A stretch of DNA of 32,000 nucleotides from Candidatus Methanoperedens sp. GTDB lineage: Archaea; Halobacteriota; Methanosarcinia; Methanosarcinales; Methanoperedenaceae. The notes below the pieces were generated by a model, which was not told the DNA's origin, made no database searches, and worked only from the letters and a program-made list of their open reading frames with translations. The DNA is taken from the NCBI GenBank assembly GCA_027460535.1, contig JAPZAR010000010.1, positions 90,001 to 122,000 of the forward strand, in the 5' to 3' direction. Shown in pieces: positions 4,779-24,632 of the stretch. A program made the position numbers and the translations under genes. The number at the start of each line of letters is the position of its first letter. Position 1 is the first letter of the stretch.

Positions 4779-6023
4779 CTAATTTGTCAAGTTTTTTCTC
4801 ATATTCTCTATTGCTTTTTCAACAAGATCTACTACAAATTTATTGCCTTTATCACCTTTATTTTTCTCAATACTCAAAAGCTTACTTAACGGAGTTTCTA
4901 ATGATTCTAAGACTGTTCTGAGTCCATTTTTCGCAGCACTTGCTTCGATATTATAGAATGATGCAGCTAATACTGGTAAACCAAGTAATTTATTTTTATC
5001 CACTATGTCTAGAATTTCTGTTAGTTCATTTATTGCTGATATTGTTGCATTTTCTCGCTTTTTGTTTGCAGTAGTAAAACCATTTTTGAACAGTACTTTG
5101 ATTATTTCTATAATAATGTAATCATTTTCTTCCTTTTCAGCATGTTTTACAACGTTGTGCAAATGTTCAATAATATGCTCGATTATTTTCTTATCTTCAT
5201 CACCCTTAAAATCATCTTTTTCAAAAATTTTATTAGTATGGTATCCAATCACATTCAATCCCTCTATTGCAGTCTCGGAATCATAATTCTTCAAAGAACT
5301 ATGCACAATATCAATGACTGGCTGGATCGGATCTTTATCCTTGTTAACATAAGATTGAATATTGTAACCTTCAAACTTGTTGTTATTTAAGGCAAATAAA
5401 ATATTCTCTTTGGTTATATCTTCTGATAAAATTCCCATTATCTTTGATGGTTTAAGCAAATCAAGAGTTTTCCGTAAGTAGGGGATTAAAGTGATGAATG
5501 CAATAGCACCAAAAGAATAAGATAAATAAATATATTTTTCAATGCTTTCTAAATTGCCCGTTTTAATCATTTCTAAAACAAACAAACCAAAAACAATAGA
5601 CCATATATATATTATTATAAGTACCCAGAAGTCTGGATTCTTGAATTTGAATATATCTATAATTCTTGTTGAATACGATGATGCTGAATGTTGTACAGCA
5701 ACTAATGTTAATGATATAACTATAGCAACTATTGAAGCTTCACATTGTACTAATGCACTGAGCATATAACGTGAGCTGTCATCATCAGTATGTACGAAAA
5801 AAGTTATTAAAATATATGTTAACACAAGAATAATTATCAAAAACATTATCAAATAATAACAGAGCTGTACAAACCAAATTTTATAATTAAAAGGTAAATA
5901 TTCTTTAATTCGAAAAAACCATAATCTGCTTATACCTACCAAAAATCCAAAAAAATAGCCTAAAACAAATATTAATAAAATTGTTATTAAAATTTCTTGT
6001 AAATAATTTCTTTCAAATTTCAT
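4779..6023 (-). CDS. Multi-pass membrane protein, DUF2254-like (from memory), with a C-terminal soluble helical domain
   Basis: The track ORF starts at a TTG at 6035; the first ATG is at 6023 (MKFERNY...). There are several N-terminal hydrophobic helices. The segment LSALVQCEASIVAIVISLTLVAVQHSASSYSTRII resembles the DUF2254 signature (..Q..A......S..LVA.Q..S.Q.SPR..). The C-terminal ~200 aa are charged and helical. The gene is very AT-rich. Confidence 0.7.
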   Translation of the reverse strand: MKFERNYLQEILITILLIFVLGYFFGFLVGISRLWFFRIKEYLPFNYKIWFVQLCYYLIMFLIIILVLTYILITFFVHTDDDSSRYMLSALVQCEASIVAIVISLTLVAVQHSASSYSTRIIDIFKFKNPDFWVLIIIYIWSIVFGLFVLEMIKTGNLESIEKYIYLSYSFGAIAFITLIPYLRKTLDLLKPSKIMGILSEDITKENILFALNNNKFEGYNIQSYVNKDKDPIQPVIDIVHSSLKNYDSETAIEGLNVIGYHTNKIFEKDDFKGDEDKKIIEHIIEHLHNVVKHAEKEENDYIIIEIIKVLFKNGFTTANKKRENATISAINELTEILDIVDKNKLLGLPVLAASFYNIEASAAKNGLRTVLESLETPLSKLLSIEKNKGDKGNKFVVDLVEKAIENMRKNLTN

Positions 6024-6133
6024 TCGAGGTAACAACAGTCGATATAATAATATAGATATCGAAAAGTGACATTAAATAAAAATCCCATCCTAGAAAAAAT
6101 GCCAGTGAAGAAAAATTCAAAACCTCTGATTAG

Positions 6134-6159
6134 AAAAATTACACTTCTTTACAAAGAAG
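6134..6159 (-). terminator. Hairpin plus T-run downstream of the 6168..6875 gene
   Basis: The palindrome cttctttacaaagaag (6144-6159) lies ~9 nt after the stop. On the minus strand it is followed by ttttt (complement of 6134-6138). Confidence 0.35.
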
Positions 6160-6167
6160 CTGTATTT

Positions 6168-6875
6168 CTATTCATAATAATACCTATAAGGTATAAACTC
6201 GTATTTTGTTTCATTTATAATATTTACTTTAAAAGTAGTTACAGTTACTAAAGGCTTTGTAACTTCTATAGTTTGATATCCAGAACCGGAAGATATAGAA
6301 TAAATTATACTTTGGTTTCCTTTGTTAACTGTCGAATATTCTAATCTTATTGATGCAAGTAGTTGGTATTTACCATTTTTTGACAAATTGTATTTCTTAT
6401 CTAGCTCGGAGTTGTCAAATTGTTCAACAATTTCTGTCCCAGGTAATAGATAGTCATCTACATTGTGCATTGATAAAGCCGAGAATGGTATTGGTATGAA
6501 TACTGGATCATAAACAAATGGTCCAAGCCCAATACCTATTCGATCTATTTTGGCTGGCAATTTACCTATGTTTTTAGTACGAAACTTTAACGTTCCACTT
6601 GGAGAATCTGTACAAATTTCAAGATCATTACTACAAGGTTCAATAGAAATCCATGGTCGTGCATCAAGTTCATATAATGCATTATATTTTTGTGTTAAAT
6701 TGGCTATTTGGTCATCAGATTTTGATAGCTCATAAGTATAATTTGCCAAATGTTGGGTATATTTGGCAACATCGGTTGTAGCTATATACAACCCATATGT
6801 AGCTACAACTAACATAAGGGTGGCTACGACTAACATAAAATTGGCTATGACTAACATCCAATCATTTAATTTCAT
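6168..6875 (-). CDS. Membrane-anchored hypothetical protein (single N-terminal TM built from a heptad repeat, beta-rich C-terminal domain)
   Basis: The track ORF is 6168..6908. I prefer the ATG at 6875 (MKLNDWMLVIANF...) because AGAGGT lies 4-5 nt upstream of it, and no SD precedes 6908. I recognise no family. Confidence 0.6.
   Translation of the reverse strand: MKLNDWMLVIANFMLVVATLMLVVATYGLYIATTDVAKYTQHLANYTYELSKSDDQIANLTQKYNALYELDARPWISIEPCSNDLEICTDSPSGTLKFRTKNIGKLPAKIDRIGIGLGPFVYDPVFIPIPFSALSMHNVDDYLLPGTEIVEQFDNSELDKKYNLSKNGKYQLLASIRLEYSTVNKGNQSIIYSISSGSGYQTIEVTKPLVTVTTFKVNIINETKYEFIPYRYYYE
6798..6860 (-). repeat. 3 x 21-nt imperfect tandem repeat inside the CDS, encoding MLVIANF/MLVVATL/MLVVATY
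   Basis: Units are tgtagctacaactaacataag / ggtggctacgactaacataaa / attggctatgactaacatcca. Neighbouring units match at 16-17 of 21 positions. Confidence 0.75.
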
Positions 6876-7030
6876 GTTACCTCTTTCATCAGATTTCGTA
6901 TTAAACATATCTAATTATTGTGAAATAATATTAAAGTTAACTTAATTTGATAGTAGTAGGATTTCTATGTTTGGATTGAGAGAACTGCATATAATTTTTG
7001 TAATATTCATTTTTTAGGCTCGCTTCAATT

Positions 7031-19001: not shown

Positions 19002-21305
19002 TTACACCCCCGCCTGTGCGCCTTGAATAAGCCGGTTTGTTTCCCCGAAGAACTCCCTCAGTTCGGCTATTGCATCTTTGAGTCTCTGGGTGTCTTGTTG
19101 TTGCTCTCTTACCTGCCTGATGAAATCCTGCGCGTTCCTGATATCTATTACCATTCCAGCTGAGTCAAACCCGGAATGATCCCTGAAGAGGTCAATGGTC
19201 TTATTATGGGTCTCTTTTGCCTGGTTCATAAGATTATTGAAATCCGATGCAATGCCGGCAAGTTTAGACGTATCCTTTCCATTCTCATTCAGCTTCTTCA
19301 TTAATATCTCCATTCTGACAGAGGCGTCATCAGTTCTTGCAAAGAATGTATTCATATTGTTGTTGACCCCTATCCCTTTGTAGTAGCGTTTTTCAAGCTC
19401 GAATTTTTCTTTTATATCCTTAAGATCGCGATTAATATCCTCTATAGCCTGTTTATCTGAAGCCTGCTGAACTCTTGTCCTGATCTGTTCCAGTTCCATT
19501 AAATGTTTGTCCAGGGTGGCGGAAGCGTCAAATGGAAGGGCTTCACCGTTCCCGGTGAATTTTGCATCACATTTAAGAAGGTCGATATCCGCAATAAAAA
19601 GGTCTATTCTTCTCTCAAAGAATTCTTTCACTACTAATTGTAATTTATCCCCTTGAAGCTTTAATTCATCTCCTCTTCTCTTAAGCTCATCTTTTTTAGC
19701 ATTTTTTTCTTCCTTGGTGAGCGATTGCTTTATGGATTCAAAGGCTTCCAATTCAGCCTTGAACTGCTCCTTCTTTGGTTCGAATTCTGCTTGGGCGACT
19801 TTAAGTTTGTCCTCGGCTTCCCTGAATGTGGTTATTGCAGTTTCGAATTTTTCCCCGGGCTCTTTGCATGTTATTGTAGGTGTTGCTGTTGGTGATATTG
19901 TTGGTGTTATTGTTGCAGTTATTGTTGGTGTTATTGTTGGTTTGGAATCCCCATCTAAAACAACAACGTGAATATAATCCCAATCCACATAGGAACCGGC
20001 GCCATTCCAAAGGTTCATGTCTATAATTGCCCTTTGTGTTGCCGTTACTGGCTTAGTAAGTAAGGCCGAAAAAGCAGTAGTATAGTTGATACCATCATTG
20101 CTGACCCGCACAGTTATCTTCTCACCATTCCTTGTAATTTCATACCAGTAACTTTCTCTAACCCAGCCATCGGTTCCGATTGAAGAAGGTGCACCGCTGA
20201 ATTTTGCTACACTCACGCCATTACTAACAAGTTCCATGGTAAGGACGTTACTTTTATACCACCAATCCACACCGCGATAGATAGAGAGGTAATCATTTGT
20301 ACCTTCTCCAAAAGCAATCCAGAAGCTCTGCCCCTGGGCACCGGTAGAACTGCCTCCGTTATGAGCGTGCAGGTTATAATCTACCTTTGTTCTTAAGGTC
20401 CAATTTTCCCCATCGAAGGGACGAATAAGTGTTAGGCTCGGTCTCCACGCCCCGGATGTTAGATAGTTATTTCTCCAACCGCCCATAGATCCCTGCGAAC
20501 CTTCAAGGTAATACCTCAAGTACCCCGGGTTATCGGTTAAGGAATATCTTCCAAGCCCAGGAACTTTTTCTACCACCTGCATAGAAGAATCTAACAACTT
20601 GTTGTTAAAATCGTCTTCAAAGCCTTTCGTCGTGTCTGCTATAACTGGCGTTACGTATGTACCATTAAATCCTATGCTTCCTCCTGCTGAAAGCGTCCTG
20701 GTCTCAGACGGCGGCACATCGTAGCCCATTACGGTTCCATACGTTATCGTATAAGTACCGGCAGGCGCATTAGCTGTATTCCATGAGGGCGCATCTGTAC
20801 TCCATGAGCCCATGCTTCCAGAATAAGACGAGGCGCCTGTGAGCGTGAAGGTTGCGCCTGCGAGGTTGGTTGATACGGTTATGGAGCCTGTTGTTGGTGG
20901 AGGTGTTGGACGTATTGGCGGTGTAGTATCTAGTATTATACTTGTGGTTTTTGTAATAGAACAGATCCCTATTTTTGCAGTAACTGTTACGGTATTTTTG
21001 CCTTCCGATAATGAAATGCTTCTTGAAAATGTATTTGTACTTGCATCAATATTTGCTGCTAATCCATTAACAGTTACTTCAAGACCACTTATACCAGTTC
21101 CACTCTTACAACCACTTGCCATTCCTGATCCACTTATCATTTGAGTGGAAATATTAGTTGGTGATTTTACTGGATTGATGTTCATGGTTATTGTTGGTGT
21201 TTGACCAGAACCACTTCCATCGCCAGAACCAGCGGATGCCGACATGCTCATCGTTACGATAACAATAAGAATTACTGTAATTATCTTATTTTTGATATCT
21301 ATCAT
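19002..21305 (-). CDS. Large secreted multidomain surface protein: signal peptide, Ig/PEGA-like beta domains, ConA/LamG-like domain, Pro/Thr linker, long C-terminal alpha-helical domain
   Basis: 767 aa. The N-terminal signal is IITVILIVIVTMSMSASA. Beta-rich repeats include GSITVSTNLAGATFTLTG...GTYTITYG (PEGA-like). A ~230-aa W/Y/G-rich beta-sandwich-like region follows, then the linker TITPTITATITPTISPTATPTIT. The final ~300 aa are charged, coiled-coil-like and helical. I saw no C-terminal TM or sorting signal. Confidence 0.75.
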   Translation of the reverse strand: MIDIKNKIITVILIVIVTMSMSASAGSGDGSGSGQTPTITMNINPVKSPTNISTQMISGSGMASGCKSGTGISGLEVTVNGLAANIDASTNTFSRSISLSEGKNTVTVTAKIGICSITKTTSIILDTTPPIRPTPPPTTGSITVSTNLAGATFTLTGASSYSGSMGSWSTDAPSWNTANAPAGTYTITYGTVMGYDVPPSETRTLSAGGSIGFNGTYVTPVIADTTKGFEDDFNNKLLDSSMQVVEKVPGLGRYSLTDNPGYLRYYLEGSQGSMGGWRNNYLTSGAWRPSLTLIRPFDGENWTLRTKVDYNLHAHNGGSSTGAQGQSFWIAFGEGTNDYLSIYRGVDWWYKSNVLTMELVSNGVSVAKFSGAPSSIGTDGWVRESYWYEITRNGEKITVRVSNDGINYTTAFSALLTKPVTATQRAIIDMNLWNGAGSYVDWDYIHVVVLDGDSKPTITPTITATITPTISPTATPTITCKEPGEKFETAITTFREAEDKLKVAQAEFEPKKEQFKAELEAFESIKQSLTKEEKNAKKDELKRRGDELKLQGDKLQLVVKEFFERRIDLFIADIDLLKCDAKFTGNGEALPFDASATLDKHLMELEQIRTRVQQASDKQAIEDINRDLKDIKEKFELEKRYYKGIGVNNNMNTFFARTDDASVRMEILMKKLNENGKDTSKLAGIASDFNNLMNQAKETHNKTIDLFRDHSGFDSAGMVIDIRNAQDFIRQVREQQQDTQRLKDAIAELREFFGETNRLIQGAQAGV
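19868..19943 (-). repeat. 12-nt-unit imperfect tandem repeat encoding the (T-I-T-P)n linker
   Basis: The plus strand reads ...tgttattgtaggtgttgctgttggtgatattgttggtgttattgttgcagttattgttggtgttattgttggt..., with ggtgttattgtt-type units. Confidence 0.7.
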
Positions 21306-21787: not shown

Positions 21788-22027
21788 TTACTTCCTCTTC
21801 TTACCCTCGTGCATCTTCTTGATCTCATCCTCAGCCGCCTGCATTTTAGCTTTGTTCTCCTCGTATATCTTGGAGATGTTCTCCATTGCCCGCTCAAGTC
21901 TCTTTTTGAGAACCACCAGTTCCTGTGTCGAGAGATTGTAGTTGGGGGTGTTCTCGATCCACAGCTGCTCTATGTCTATGAGGGCATTGAGGGCAGCCTT
22001 TGTCCTGTTGACGGTGTTCTCATCCAT
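21788..22027 (-). CDS. Small coiled-coil protein with a Lys-rich C-terminus (79 aa), unknown function
   Basis: MDENTVNRTKAALNALIDIEQLW...KKRLERAMENISKIYEENKAKMQAAEDEIKKMHEGKKRK has clean heptad-like composition and an ATG start. The overlapping 104-aa ORF in another frame looks spurious (Arg-rich). Confidence 0.5.
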   Translation of the reverse strand: MDENTVNRTKAALNALIDIEQLWIENTPNYNLSTQELVVLKKRLERAMENISKIYEENKAKMQAAEDEIKKMHEGKKRK

Positions 22028-22305: not shown

Positions 22306-22331
22306 AAGTTTAAGTATAAAATTATAAAAGC
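22306..22331 (+). promoter_or_regulatory. Putative archaeal BRE/TATA block at the 5' end of leader copy A
   Basis: aagtttaagtataaaattataaaagc contains two TATA-like octamers. The block is identical in copy B (23256-23281) and lies ~330 nt upstream of the ATG, implying a long 5' leader. Confidence 0.35.
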
Positions 22332-22609
22332 TTATCAAAAACATGCGCATGATAATATATGTAATGATTTAGAAAGATTTATGGGTTGTGAGCGCAATTC
22401 ATAGAATAGCGTGTGTGGGTTACACAACGCTAATGGTGGTATCCCCACAAAAGTGAGTGGTTAAGGGGATTGTTAAGAATGGAGTGACATTCTCCCCGAT
22501 CTCTTTAATTAAAACCATGCTTTAAGAAATCCGAGATGCATGGGGATTTGCCCGCAGGGGTGGTGTGGTGAATGCATCAGGCGCAGAATGTGATGCGCAA
22601 TGGCACAGG
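22306..22609 (+). repeat. Leader repeat copy A (~304 nt), upstream of secreted-protein ORF A
   Basis: It aligns with 23256-23560 at an offset of 950 nt. By hand alignment there are about 10 substitutions and one 1-nt indel. A second short conserved block, aaaccataggaggta (SD), lies just before each ATG. Confidence 0.9.
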
Positions 22610-22655
22610 CGAAGAAAGCCTTGCCAAGATACATAAACCATAGGAGGTATAAGAA

Positions 22656-23144
22656 ATGAAAAAAATAGAGAACAAAGCGCTATTGAAGTTAGGAGTTGTA
22701 GCAATGCTCCTTATCTTGGGTATGGCGCTTGTAGAGGCAATGGCACTGAACTCGGTGCTCACCCCTGTAACTTGGACCTTCGCCACTGGAGGAGATGTCA
22801 ACGTTTTTGACCCGAACGGTACGGCGAAAATCACGGTCTGGAATACAACTTCCCACGTTAAACTGTTGAAACTAGATTTGGAACCATTCTCTCCAAAATC
22901 ATTTAATTTCACAGCTCCGCCGGGTAATTTGACCATCTGCCTCGTAGATGAGCAAAATAAAGAAACGCCACCCATGCCACCCGGAAGAGATGCCTGGATA
23001 CTCAACTCAACAGGCACTTTTGGTCCTTTCCCTGGCGCTGGATTATGTAAACCCTCCGAGCATGAGGATGATCAAGGGGACCAGCAAGGGGACCAGCAAG
23101 GGGACCAGCATGGGAACCAGCATGGGAACCAGCATGGGAAGTGA
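22656..23144 (+). CDS. Secreted small protein A (162 aa) with four N-x-S/T sequons and a (QGDQ)3(HGNQ)2HGK tail
   Basis: GGAGGT lies 6 nt upstream of the ATG. The signal-like N-terminus is MKKIENKALLKLGVVAMLLILGMALVEA. The sequons are NTT, NFT, NLT and NST. The C-terminus is a repeat. Confidence 0.7.
   Translation: MKKIENKALLKLGVVAMLLILGMALVEAMALNSVLTPVTWTFATGGDVNVFDPNGTAKITVWNTTSHVKLLKLDLEPFSPKSFNFTAPPGNLTICLVDEQNKETPPMPPGRDAWILNSTGTFGPFPGAGLCKPSEHEDDQGDQQGDQQGDQHGNQHGNQHGK
23073..23141 (+). repeat. 12-nt tandem repeat (5.75 units) at the 3' end of ORF A
   Basis: caaggggaccag x3, then catgggaaccag x2, then catgggaag, directly followed by the stop codon. Confidence 0.9.
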
Positions 23145-23177
23145 TGAAAGGCCCCAACAAAAACTCAGTAAAGTTTG

Positions 23178-23207
23178 AGAGGGAGCAAATCCCTCTTTTG
23201 ATTTTTT
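23178..23207 (+). terminator. Hairpin plus T-run terminator after ORF A
   Basis: agaggga-gcaaa-tccctct forms a 7-bp stem and is followed by tttgatttttt. The same element recurs after ORF B. Confidence 0.6.
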
Positions 23208-23255
23208 ATAAACTTGTTATTTCTTAAAATGAGAAAAAACAAGTTAAAATTTTGG

Positions 23256-23281
23256 AAGTTTAAGTATAAAATTATAAAAGC
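23256..23281 (+). promoter_or_regulatory. Putative archaeal BRE/TATA block at the 5' end of leader copy B
   Basis: Identical to 22306-22331. Confidence 0.35.
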
Positions 23282-23560
23282 TTATCAAAAACATGCGCAT
23301 GATAATATACGTTATGATTTAGAAAGATTTATGTGTTGTGAGCGCAATTCATAGAATAGCGTGTGTGGGTTACACAACGCCAATGGTGGTATCCCCACAA
23401 AAGTGAGTGGTTAAGGGGATTGTTAAGAATGAAGTGACATTCTCCCCGATCTCTTTAAATTAAAACCACGCTTTGAAAAATCCGAGATGCATGGGGGTTT
23501 GCCCGCAGGGGTGGTGTGGTAAATGCATCAGGCGCAGAATGTGATGCGCAATGGCACAGG
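23256..23560 (+). repeat. Leader repeat copy B (~305 nt), upstream of secreted-protein ORF B
   Basis: See copy A. It is directly contiguous with the conserved terminator tail of cassette A (23173-23255). Confidence 0.9.
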
Positions 23561-23611
23561 GCAAGCCACAGGCGAGCCTTGTAAAAAGATAAACCATAGG
23601 AGGTAAATGAT

Positions 23612-24169
23612 ATGAAAATAGATAAAAAGCTGGCAGTAATAATGCTGGCAGGAATAGTGGTGGCTTCGGCATTTATGGCCGCAGCAGAGGCAAAACCGCC
23701 AAAACCAATGGAGGTGAAAGTAACATGCCCACCTGAGGGGCCAACAGTAACAATTGATCTTACTGCCGGCATTTCTGCAGATGCAGCCGGCTGCATGGTC
23801 AAAGTAGATAATCTCGCCCCATCTGATCCGTTTGATGCTGCTATCCTCTTGCCGGCCGATACAACGGACCTTCGTATTAAATTGGATCCAGCCGTCGTCA
23901 TCATAAATGATGTGGATGGGGACAACGAATATATGGTAGAGGGCGATGCAGTAGGGCCTGACTTAGTAACATACAACGATGCCGCAGGAAATGACAAACT
24001 GGACTTCAAGGGCAAGAAGACCAGCGTCAATACACTGACCATAGTTGGGGCCGCCGGAGGCGGGAACAATGACTACAAAGCCGATAATATTGGCATTGAT
24101 CCCAGCAGCGGTATGTTCGGCTTCAGCTATCTGCCTGGCGACGGGACGGATAAGATCAAGATAAATTAA
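23612..24169 (+). CDS. Secreted small protein B (185 aa), Asp/Gly-rich, unrelated by eye to protein A
   Basis: GGAGGT lies 7 nt upstream of the ATG. The signal-like N-terminus is MKIDKKLAVIMLAGIVVASAFMAAAEA. The mature part is rich in D/G/N (DVDGDNEY, DAAGNDKLD, GDGTDKI), which could be a Ca-binding-like flavour. Confidence 0.7.
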   Translation: MKIDKKLAVIMLAGIVVASAFMAAAEAKPPKPMEVKVTCPPEGPTVTIDLTAGISADAAGCMVKVDNLAPSDPFDAAILLPADTTDLRIKLDPAVVIINDVDGDNEYMVEGDAVGPDLVTYNDAAGNDKLDFKGKKTSVNTLTIVGAAGGGNNDYKADNIGIDPSSGMFGFSYLPGDGTDKIKIN

Positions 24170-24190
24170 ATCACCAGCACATCAGGTTTG

Positions 24191-24219
24191 AGAGGGAGCA
24201 ATCCCTCTTTTATTTTTTA
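24191..24219 (+). terminator. Hairpin plus T-run terminator after ORF B
   Basis: agaggga-gcaa-tccctct is followed by tttatttttt. It is homologous to 23178-23207, and the conserved tail continues to ~24262. Confidence 0.6.
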
Positions 24220-24632
24220 TAAATTTGTTACTCTTAAAATGGGATGGCTTGTTAAAATTTGGTTATCCTGTGAGCTTCATATCTCAGCTTATAAAAATGT
24301 TAGCATCAAGAGGATGATGAGCTTGGAAATGCGGCCATAGAAGTTCTCGAAGGAGTGGAGATTAAATCAGCCGGTCATAATTTCGGCAAAGGTGAAGATG
24401 AGGCACCGGAGCTGCTGACAGACGCGGATTTGCTGATTTCAGATGGTATAAGATTTGTAAAAAGGCATTCCAAAAATGAAAATATAAGCTTCAGTATTAT
24501 ATTATTTAGAATTTACTTGAGAAAAAGATCATAACAAAAAGACATTTTCTCAACGCCATTAATGTTTATGAAAAGGGAATGGCAAGAGAACCTTATCTAC
24601 CTTGTAGCCAAAAAATATGCTTGAATAGGGGA

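Follow-up and report, generated by a model that had tools for sequence, protein, structure and literature searches.

We analyzed a 32,000-nt stretch of a Candidatus Methanoperedens sp. genome (GenBank assembly GCA_027460535.1, contig JAPZAR010000010.1, positions 90,001 to 122,000; hereafter the window, with positions counted from its first letter) and found that two tandem cassettes, starting at 22306 and 23256, place unrelated secreted-protein genes (the cargos) between nearly identical noncoding flanks. The best explanation, and in our judgment a probable one, is a shared transcription-unit chassis that has been multiplied by segmental duplication and held uniform by purifying selection on the core of its leader together with gene conversion. 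Under this explanation, each cassette would be a complete transcription unit: an AT-rich archaeal promoter block and a long structured leader, whose last ~100 nt would form four helices, would be followed by a strong Shine–Dalgarno (SD) sequence, a Sec-type signal peptide and, at the 3' side, a hairpin and T-run terminator, with unrelated, fast-evolving mature secreted domains sitting within the chassis. The units multiply by segmental or tandem duplication and swap parts through homologous recombination, with the leader and the tail as homology arms. The core would be transcribed in the mRNA and act in cis, either by binding a regulator or through control of mRNA stability or translation; the shared leader would allow the co-expression of a set of small secreted proteins, and within-genome gene conversion and purifying selection would keep the copies alike.

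The window is chromosomal, with cbiMQO, pyrBI, dapF, SMC, and aspS. In a global alignment, 22306-22609 and 23256-23560 show 294 matches, 10 mismatches, and one gap column (96.4% identity), the very count made by hand in a preliminary description of the sequence. A repeat search of the window recovered the same similarity as two segments, 22306-22514/23256-23464 (209 nt, 97%) and 22504-22614/23455-23565 (111 nt, 93%), and because of their length and identity the repeats cannot be attributed to chance. Also as described there, a variable stretch follows the aligned leaders (62% identity between the cassettes over ~46-51 nt) and gives way to conserved SD blocks (22633-22662 and 23589-23618, 90%); the tails 23173-23255 and 24186-24262 are 83% identical. 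Each unit has its own TATA-like block, SD, and terminator, and searches of the 32-kb window with nhmmer and a covariance model found no further leader copies. The two cassettes are laid out as follows, with the basis of each assignment in brackets.

22306-22334, plus strand: AT-rich TATA/B recognition element-like block AAGTTTAAGTATAAAATTATAAAAGC at the left edge of the unit, candidate upstream archaeal promoter of cassette 1 (sequence only)
22335-22526, plus strand: 5' and middle part of the cassette 1 leader, with a long hairpin at 22463-22507 (inner stem AGAATG/CATTCT) (alignment, fold)
22527-22625, plus strand: conserved core of the cassette 1 leader, four predicted helices (covariance model, 104 bits)
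22626-22655, plus strand: A-rich linker and SD of cassette 1 (GGAGG 22643-22647), with the ATG at 22656 (segment identities)
22656-23144, plus strand: cargo 1, a 162-aa secreted protein (open reading frame, ORF)
23145-23243, plus strand: tail 1, a 3' module that is conserved and contains the hairpin GAGAGGGA-loop-TCCCTCTT at 23177-23197 and a T-run at 23198-23207 (terminator-like site)
23244-23255, minus strand: 12-nt remnant ttaaaattttgg (plus-strand letters) of the stop and last codons of a Toprim gene, right edge of unit 1 (alignment)
23256-23611, plus strand: cassette 2 promoter-like block (23256-23284), leader, core (23478-23583), and SD (GGAGG 23599-23603) (alignment, 134 bits)
23612-24169, plus strand: cargo 2, a 185-aa secreted protein of a 'D-x-AGNDKY' repeat family (ORF)
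24170-24254, plus strand: tail 2, terminator module with hairpin (24190-24209) and T-run (24210-24216) (terminator-like site, alignment)
24255-24299, minus strand: fossil Toprim C terminus HFYKLRYEAHRITKF* (tblastn against the Toprim protein of locus L012, see below)

Both cargos carry an N-terminal Sec-type signal peptide. BLASTP found no similarity between the 162- and 185-aa proteins (best E=1.7), and profile–profile alignment with hhalign, using shallow and deeper profiles, gave probabilities of 0.4% and 0.6%; neither protein has a Pfam match. The AlphaFold2 (AF2) model of cargo 1 is a low-confidence beta-sandwich with a predicted local distance difference test score (pLDDT) of 54, and its structural matches are to generic beta-sandwiches only. 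That of cargo 2 (pLDDT 72) is all-beta and solenoid-like, with weak matches to beta-helices and adhesins (E>2), and we predict cargo 2 to be a beta-solenoid. The different predicted folds agree with the earlier impression that the two proteins are unrelated, and hidden homology was rejected on the evidence of BLASTP, hhalign, NCBIfam, and AF2 with Foldseek, while the pLDDT of 54 leaves room for a very distant fold relation.

The C-terminal tail of cargo 1 is rich in His, Asp, and Gln (GDQQ/GNQH) and derives from a 12-nt tandem repeat at 23073-23138 (5.5 copies, 96% matches). Four homologues of cargo 1 (P0003-P0005 and the 147-aa protein of L012) have a near-identical signal peptide and an overall identity of 52-90%, and the tail is absent or shorter in P0003-P0005; since its length varies among the homologues, this disordered tail is a rapidly changing one. 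Cargo 2 is deposited as a hypothetical protein (MCZ7356058.1, Candidatus Methanoperedens sp.). A profile of the 185-aa family retrieved ~10 further small secreted 'D-x-AGNDKY' repeat proteins from a library of 1.84 billion proteins and nothing significant in a sequence search of the PDB. Among orthologous cargo types, the DNA of the signal peptide is 87-98% identical and that of the mature part 47-72%; synonymous divergence (dS) is 0.1-0.37 in the signal peptide, lower than in the mature part in five of six comparisons. The mature parts have ratios of nonsynonymous to synonymous divergence (dN/dS) of 0.53-0.79, against 0.015-0.08 for the POR and RpoB genes; the cargo is evolving under relaxed or diversifying selection.

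Leader copies beyond the window, a search that the preliminary description had proposed, were traced through cargo homologues; the labels L0xx denote individual contigs or loci. The same leader is present in at least four other Methanoperedens-type assemblies, often as tandem units, so the arrangement is not found only here, and it precedes three unrelated cargo families: the 162-aa type, the 185-aa type, and post-COAP-1. In L012 (GCA_040223915.1, a 1.36-Mb contig), copy a precedes a 185-type protein of 184 aa (53% identical) and copy b, truncated at its 5' end, precedes the 147-aa protein of the 162 type. The leader of L021 precedes a 140-aa gene of the 162 type, and in both L012 and L021, as in the window copies, the left-edge homology begins exactly at the 22306 block. 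L017 (GCA_053537675.1) retains only the 3' ~230 nt, before a 129-aa gene of the 162 type, and L022 and L007 are short metagenome contigs with one leader copy each.

A more diverged tandem pair lies in L048 (GCA_040961345.1, 1993-3560) and consists of a leader, a 150-aa post-COAP-1 protein and a hairpin, then a leader, a 171-aa protein of the 185 type and a hairpin. The 150-aa protein (L048 2202-2654), the third cargo type and seen in L048 only, matches NF041523 with 64 bits (E=1.6e-17; curated cut-off 40 bits), a family that neither window cargo matches. Over 302 nt, identity between the two L048 leaders is 81%, and their similarity continues for ~88 nt within the ORFs; the signal peptides of these two unrelated cargos are therefore homologous, which suggests that the 5' module is shuffled as a whole. 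The L048 leaders differ from each other by 16-19% and from the window core by ~35-40% (61.9% identity, approximate extraction). In several independent assemblies, a contig start (L004, L005, L019, L020, L049, and L050) or a contig end (L011) falls within or right beside the leader or the tail, 61-129 nt before the cargo ATG or just past the terminator. The repeats thus fragment metagenome assemblies at these loci, and they also give rise to spurious gene calls on the antisense strand.

The 3' element consists of a GC-rich stem of 8 bp, a loop of 4-7 nt, and a T-run. The stem GAGAGGG...CCCTCT is found in all units except L017, with variable loops, and the hairpin stem of tail 1 also stands 3' of the cargo in L012, L021, both units of L048, and L051, a relative whose leader lacks the core. 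The preliminary description had taken a longer block behind the ORFs to be conserved as one; the tails with hairpin and T-run bear this out, while the final part, gttaaaatttgg..., is the degraded stop and last codons of a Toprim gene and not a functional motif.

On the minus strand of 24255-24299, HFYKLRYEAHRITKF aligns with YVNKLRYEVHGITKF, the C terminus of the L012 Toprim protein, and the end of tail 1, gttaaaattttgg, is a 12-nt stump of the same fossil that aligns with the longer one behind unit 2 and with the undamaged 3' end of the Toprim gene in L012. The Toprim gene is convergent to the cassette in L012, L017, and L021 (the JGI name of an orthologue is '5S rRNA maturation endonuclease (ribonuclease M5)'), and the fossils therefore indicate that the window units were copied imprecisely from a locus of the flavodoxin/cassette/Toprim type. 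No MazG, PHP, or flavodoxin fossils were found in the window flanks by tblastn. In L012, 10640-13633 holds a 1.9-kb tandem duplication of the cassette, Toprim, and a PF1765-like gene whose junction cuts the second leader at ~111; a frameshift splits the second Toprim copy into two 76-aa ORFs and makes it a recent pseudogene. L021 represents the state without this duplication and has a full leader before a 162-type cargo.

A neighbouring gene encodes a 79-aa protein (21788-22027, minus strand), which has 291 homologues in Methanoperedens with 87-99% identity among the 120 listed. In two other species, represented by L042 (GCA_053537695.1) and L044, the gene order is pyrB, pyrI, a MazG or PHP-domain gene, and the 79-aa gene, with neither cassette nor leader, and the window cassettes are thus an insertion or replacement in the lineage of the window. 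On the 150-kb contig of L042, the distance between a POR beta-type gene and the 79-aa gene is ~5 kb, and a POR alpha gene clusters at ≥90% with the one beside the L017 cassette; the cassette locus was not seen on this contig. Since the POR genes share a contig with pyrBI and the 79-aa gene, the donor and recipient sites may be close to each other in this relative. As for the 79-aa protein itself, JGI labels several homologues 'gas vesicle protein', and the conservation is very high for a small protein of unknown function; the gene is syntenic with pyrBI in some species and adjoins HEM4 in M. nitroreducens.

Exchange between copies is apparent in several alleles. L006 corresponds exactly to what a crossover of the two window leaders, placed within 22431-22482, would yield, with cassette 1 deleted; L007 joins a leader of the L012a type to the 185-aa ORF of the window across only ~33 shared nt; and L022 has a mosaic leader (cassette 1/cassette 2/cassette 1) between the 3' end of a 162-type gene and P0003, which is itself a chimera of the 162-aa gene of the window and the 147-aa gene of L012. 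The leaders cluster by genome and not by cargo (95-100% between cassettes 1 and 2, by segment), which indicates gene conversion; within-genome conversion, already suggested in the preliminary description, is therefore supported by the sequence comparisons.

The mosaic leaders, chimeric cargo, and deletion and hybrid alleles also uphold the earlier notion that cargo is exchanged between constant flanks, and a dedicated recombination system for surface or secreted variation, programmed in the manner of integrons or of the Mycoplasma vsp/vpma genes, could be imagined behind it. The constant flanks around unrelated cargo, the tandem arrays, the high dN/dS of the cargo, the hairpin at the 3' end of each cassette, and the presence of one- or two-cassette alleles with differing content in one sample series (L006, L022, and the window) would all fit such a system. 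We nevertheless consider it very unlikely. No integrase, recombinase, or transposase was found among the window ORFs with Pfam, and the genes of the related loci include no integrase or recombinase; each unit has a promoter and SD of its own; the 21-nt GC stem with its T-run is a terminator and not an attC site of 57-141 nt; the crossovers fall anywhere in homologous sequence; and the Toprim fossils reflect imprecise segmental copying. A repeat search of the window found no inverted repeats bounding the units, as would be expected of an insertion sequence (IS), miniature inverted-repeat transposable element, or transposon, and the unit edges are the promoter block on the left and the neighbouring Toprim fossil on the right. 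Together, these patterns point to a spread by segmental duplication and homologous recombination and not by a dedicated mobile element.

Conservation is uneven along the leader. L012b, L017, and L048 lack the 5' ~95 nt, for which the genomes that have them show 80-88% identity. Identity between genomes is 65-81% in the middle part, and among copies it is 82-96% in the core (22496-22608). Over 22335-22526 of cassette 1, identity to other genomes is 76-88%. The last ~45 nt before the ATG follow mostly the cargo type (94% between cassette 2 and L012a, 95% between L012b and L021, and 63% between cassettes 1 and 2), and the SD-proximal segment of cassette 1 is 100% identical to that of L022 and only 57% to that of L012b. 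As a yardstick, POR and RNA-polymerase genes have 77-78% nucleotide identity and a dS of 1.4-2.6 between L012 and L017, and other intergenic DNA of the two is unalignable. The core is conserved at or above the level of housekeeping coding DNA, and the constrained element is a core of ~100-170 nt. The preliminary description had proposed a cis-acting leader RNA of ~300 nt: the recurrence before three cargo families, the conservation, and the modeled sense-strand structure speak for the RNA, whereas the length has to be reduced to that of the core.

Whole leaders fold better than shuffled controls (z=-4.6 for cassette 1 and z=-3.7 for cassette 2). We modeled the core (22527-22625 and 23478-23583 of the window) with RNAalifold and a covariance model, R1, made from six copies and spanning 106 positions, which scored the ten copies at 59-134 bits and had no other match in 112 kb. 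The helices of the core model, all on the plus strand and given for cassette 1, are as follows.

22535-22541/22572-22578: helix P1', GAUGCAU/AUGCAUC, enclosing P2
22550-22553/22558-22561: helix P2, GCCC/GGGU
22581-22585/22594-22598: helix P4, GCGCA/UGCGC
22606-22610/22618-22623: helix P5, ACAGGGC/GCCUUGU, with an inner stem

Paired cells make up 90.7% of the core alignment at these positions and 23-43% with slid partners. Three helices show one double-sided pair change each, U-A to C-G in P1' (L017), C-G through U-G to U-A in P2 (L048), and A-U to C-G in P4 (L048); the covariation score is 0.085 against 0.057 in shuffles, with 3 of 500 shuffles reaching the observed score. The recurrent G-U pairs are compatible with an RNA of the sense (plus) strand only, and the inner stem of the long upstream hairpin covaries as well (AGAATG/CATTCT against GAAAGG/CCTTTC in L017). 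We regard the covariation support for the four-helix core as suggestive. Two elements of earlier models were discarded: helix P3 (GGUGUG/UGCAUC) of the first RNAalifold model and a local P1 hairpin (AAAUCC/GGAUUU) both gave way to the long-range P1', which alone of the three is kept in L048 and L017, with a compensatory change; P1 is possible as an alternative fold.

A scan of the whole window with Rfam 15 at gathering thresholds gave no match, permissive scans of the window and L048 leaders gave chance-level matches only (E≥0.13, far below the gathering scores), and a tRNA/tmRNA search found none. The leader thus matches no Rfam family and shows neither terminal inverted repeats nor an attC-like site, in keeping with the earlier remark that it was not recognized as any known riboswitch, IS end, or attC. 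The SD is unpaired in the predicted folds of both leaders, and inspection found no conserved anti-SD sequence.

Several observations weigh against a regulatory RNA maintained by selection. The covariation comes from nine distinct, related sequences and three double-change pairs, and both the structure and the alignment, which was fitted to the model, come from these very sequences. The dS of the cassettes, signal peptides included (0.1-0.8), is well under that of the housekeeping genes of L012 and L017, so part of the conservation could stem from recent exchange or gene conversion and would then call for no RNA function. L051 works with the same terminator stem and a leader without the core, so at least one member of the family does not need the core. 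The distribution of the element, as sampled, is also narrow: exact scans with an invariant 19-base core pattern, CAGGCGCANAATGTGATGCG, which diverged copies such as those of L048 would escape, found it absent from 185,579 GTDB species representatives, JGI metagenome contigs, and IMG/VR, with chance bacterial matches only (BLAST against the leader); a gapped pattern found nothing in IMG/VR, and blastn of the leader found nothing in plasmid and phage collections. The recombinant alleles L006, L022, and L007, furthermore, sit on short metagenome contigs from samples ERZ27247945, ERZ27247946, and ERZ27248002 and could in principle be assembly chimeras, although the shared stretches are shorter than the assembly k=141, which argues against simple chimeras.

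From these points, one could argue for neutral hitch-hiking, with an ordinary promoter, untranslated region (UTR), and terminator kept alike through recent duplication, gene conversion, or strain exchange and no specific regulatory role. The 96% identity of the two window leaders, their clustering by genome rather than by cargo, the low dS, the mosaic alleles as signs of frequent exchange, and the core-less L051 would be accounted for. We consider this unlikely, since the diverged L048 leaders retain all four modeled helices, with compensatory changes, and since conservation is clearly higher in the core than in the 5' half of the leader or in the tail, a gradient not expected from conversion tracts alone.

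The position of the promoter bears on how much of the leader is RNA. A TATA-rich block, ATCATTTTTTAAATTTTT...AATAAATATATA, is common to L017 and L051; its distance upstream of the ATG is ~280 nt in L017 and ~70 nt in L051, which places the L017 core between promoter and SD. A second TATA-like block at 22502-22530 (TTTAATTAAAACC...CTTTAAGAAAT), inside the leader, is conserved in all copies and could be a second or the sole promoter; were it the real promoter, the RNA would leave out part of P1' and most of the '300-nt leader', the latter being upstream DNA, a further point against a long regulatory RNA. Taken to its end, this gives a DNA-level regulatory block, with an internal promoter at ~22502-22530, upstream transcription-factor sites that include the palindromes CATGCGCATG and ATGCAT, and a 5'UTR of only the last ~80-100 nt. 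The TTTAATTA and TTTAAAAAAT blocks, both TATA-like, are conserved in every copy, L048 and L017 included, which fits this reading, as does the lack of AT-rich sequence upstream of the conserved region in the second L048 unit (L048b). Long 5'UTRs and multiple start sites are normal in Methanosarcinales, and in Methanolobus psychrophilus many genes have several start sites (PMC5378194). Pair 7 of P1', however, shows the double change from U-A to C-G even though its 5' arm is at or upstream of the predicted start of the internal promoter, the G-U pairs indicate pairing in RNA and not in DNA, and the L017/L051 promoter block stands far upstream of the core. We therefore rate a purely DNA-level block as distinctly unlikely.

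The leader might also be a gene of its own, for a small RNA or a small protein, upstream of the ORFs. It is long, structured, and conserved, with its own TATA-like block, and in four copies a short ORF, MHGDLPAGVVW*, starts from a conserved ATG. This ORF is frameshifted in L012a and L021, and its L048 counterparts differ both in length and in sequence; between the leader and the SD of the cargo ORF, the window has no T-run; and the core is always ~25-45 nt from an SD. A separate gene is consequently hardly to be believed, and a protein-coding leader was rejected, as stops or frameshifts in other copies interrupt both the short sense ORF and those of the antisense strand. The antisense ORFs (41-133 aa, minus strand) lie over the leader at 11474-11875 of L012 and at 22509-22634 and 23460-23672 of the window; the 133-aa gene called on L012 is an antisense of the leader and, as the frames are broken in other copies, probably spurious.

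In favor of the shared chassis, the leader family thus combines a core conserved among genomes with a putative sense-strand structure, and the sequence evidence leads us to infer co-regulation of the cargos through the leader RNA. We propose the leader as a candidate new archaeal cis-regulatory RNA motif with unusual, modular genomic behavior. More tentatively, the ~100-nt core could represent an undescribed class of archaeal cis-regulatory RNA, responding to a ligand or protein and controlling a fast-evolving secreted regulon in anaerobic methane-oxidizing archaea, with the core and the terminator as portable homology arms for the exchange of cargo between Methanoperedens lineages; this extension is doubtful as a whole. 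Being common to three secreted families and kept across species with saturated synonymous sites, the leader would mark a co-regulated extracellular function in Methanoperedens. To our knowledge, very few cis-regulatory RNAs are known in archaea, and the literature searched describes none for anaerobic methane oxidizers. Start-site mapping, structure probing, and reporter assays have a concrete target in the leader, and the locus provides an example of modular archaeal gene evolution in which a constant promoter, leader, signal peptide, and terminator are reused for different mature domains.

Elsewhere in the window, a 767-aa secreted protein with no Pfam match above threshold is encoded two genes upstream of the cassettes (19002-21305, minus strand). 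It has a Pro/Thr 'PTIT' linker from a 12-nt tandem repeat (19869-19941, six copies) and a long, coiled-coil-like C-terminal third. At 4779-6908, the GC content falls to 27-30%, against ~46% elsewhere; its minus strand carries the gene of a 418-aa DUF2254 membrane protein and an ORF of 246 aa that has no Pfam match, and the stretch may be a horizontally acquired islet.

Compared with known systems, the cassettes resemble those of integrons in forming arrays of short single-ORF units with unrelated cargo and a hairpin-forming end. Integron cassettes are normally promoterless, their attC site is an imperfect palindrome of 57-141 nt with R and L boxes, and IntI and attI are required; none of these features, promoterless cassettes, attC, IntI, or attI, is found here. 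With the cis-regulatory leaders in Rfam, such as riboswitches and ribosomal-protein leaders, the leader would share a conserved multi-helix structure in the 5'UTR near the SD and an association with functionally linked genes, and it differs from them in having no Rfam match, no identified alternative fold that sequesters the SD, and a very narrow range. Conotoxin-like families of secreted toxins combine a conserved signal/pro region with a hypervariable mature peptide; they are eukaryotic, exon-structured, and of a single protein type. The contrast between a slow 5' module and a fast mature domain with raised dN/dS is common to both, while the conotoxins, unlike the cassettes, have no shared structured UTR or terminator.

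In likely mechanism, the closest analogue is the long 5'UTRs of Methanosarcinales (Methanosarcina mazei and M. psychrophilus), an order to which the host also belongs. In M. psychrophilus, 24% of mRNAs have UTRs of >150 nt, some of up to 497 nt, and UTR stem-loops have been proposed to control stability and translation (PMC5378194). Those UTRs are gene-specific, unlike the leader here, and the literature searched reports no conserved leader common to unrelated genes across species in Methanosarcinales; it yielded nothing on UTRs or start sites in Methanoperedens or on post-COAP-1. In layout, the closest analogue is the vsp/vpma genes of Mycoplasma, tandem families whose members share a conserved 5'UTR and signal peptide and vary in the mature part (PMC3365025). 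There, the conserved UTR is ~70 bp, an adjacent site-specific Xer-type recombinase drives phase variation, the mature parts are repetitive variants of one family, and a single expression site is active; here, the host is archaeal, there is no recombinase, the putatively structured leader is 200-300 nt long, the cargo folds are unrelated, and every unit has a promoter-like block, SD, and terminator. What the two systems share is the conserved 5' module before divergent mature parts, seen in the window and in L048 alike.

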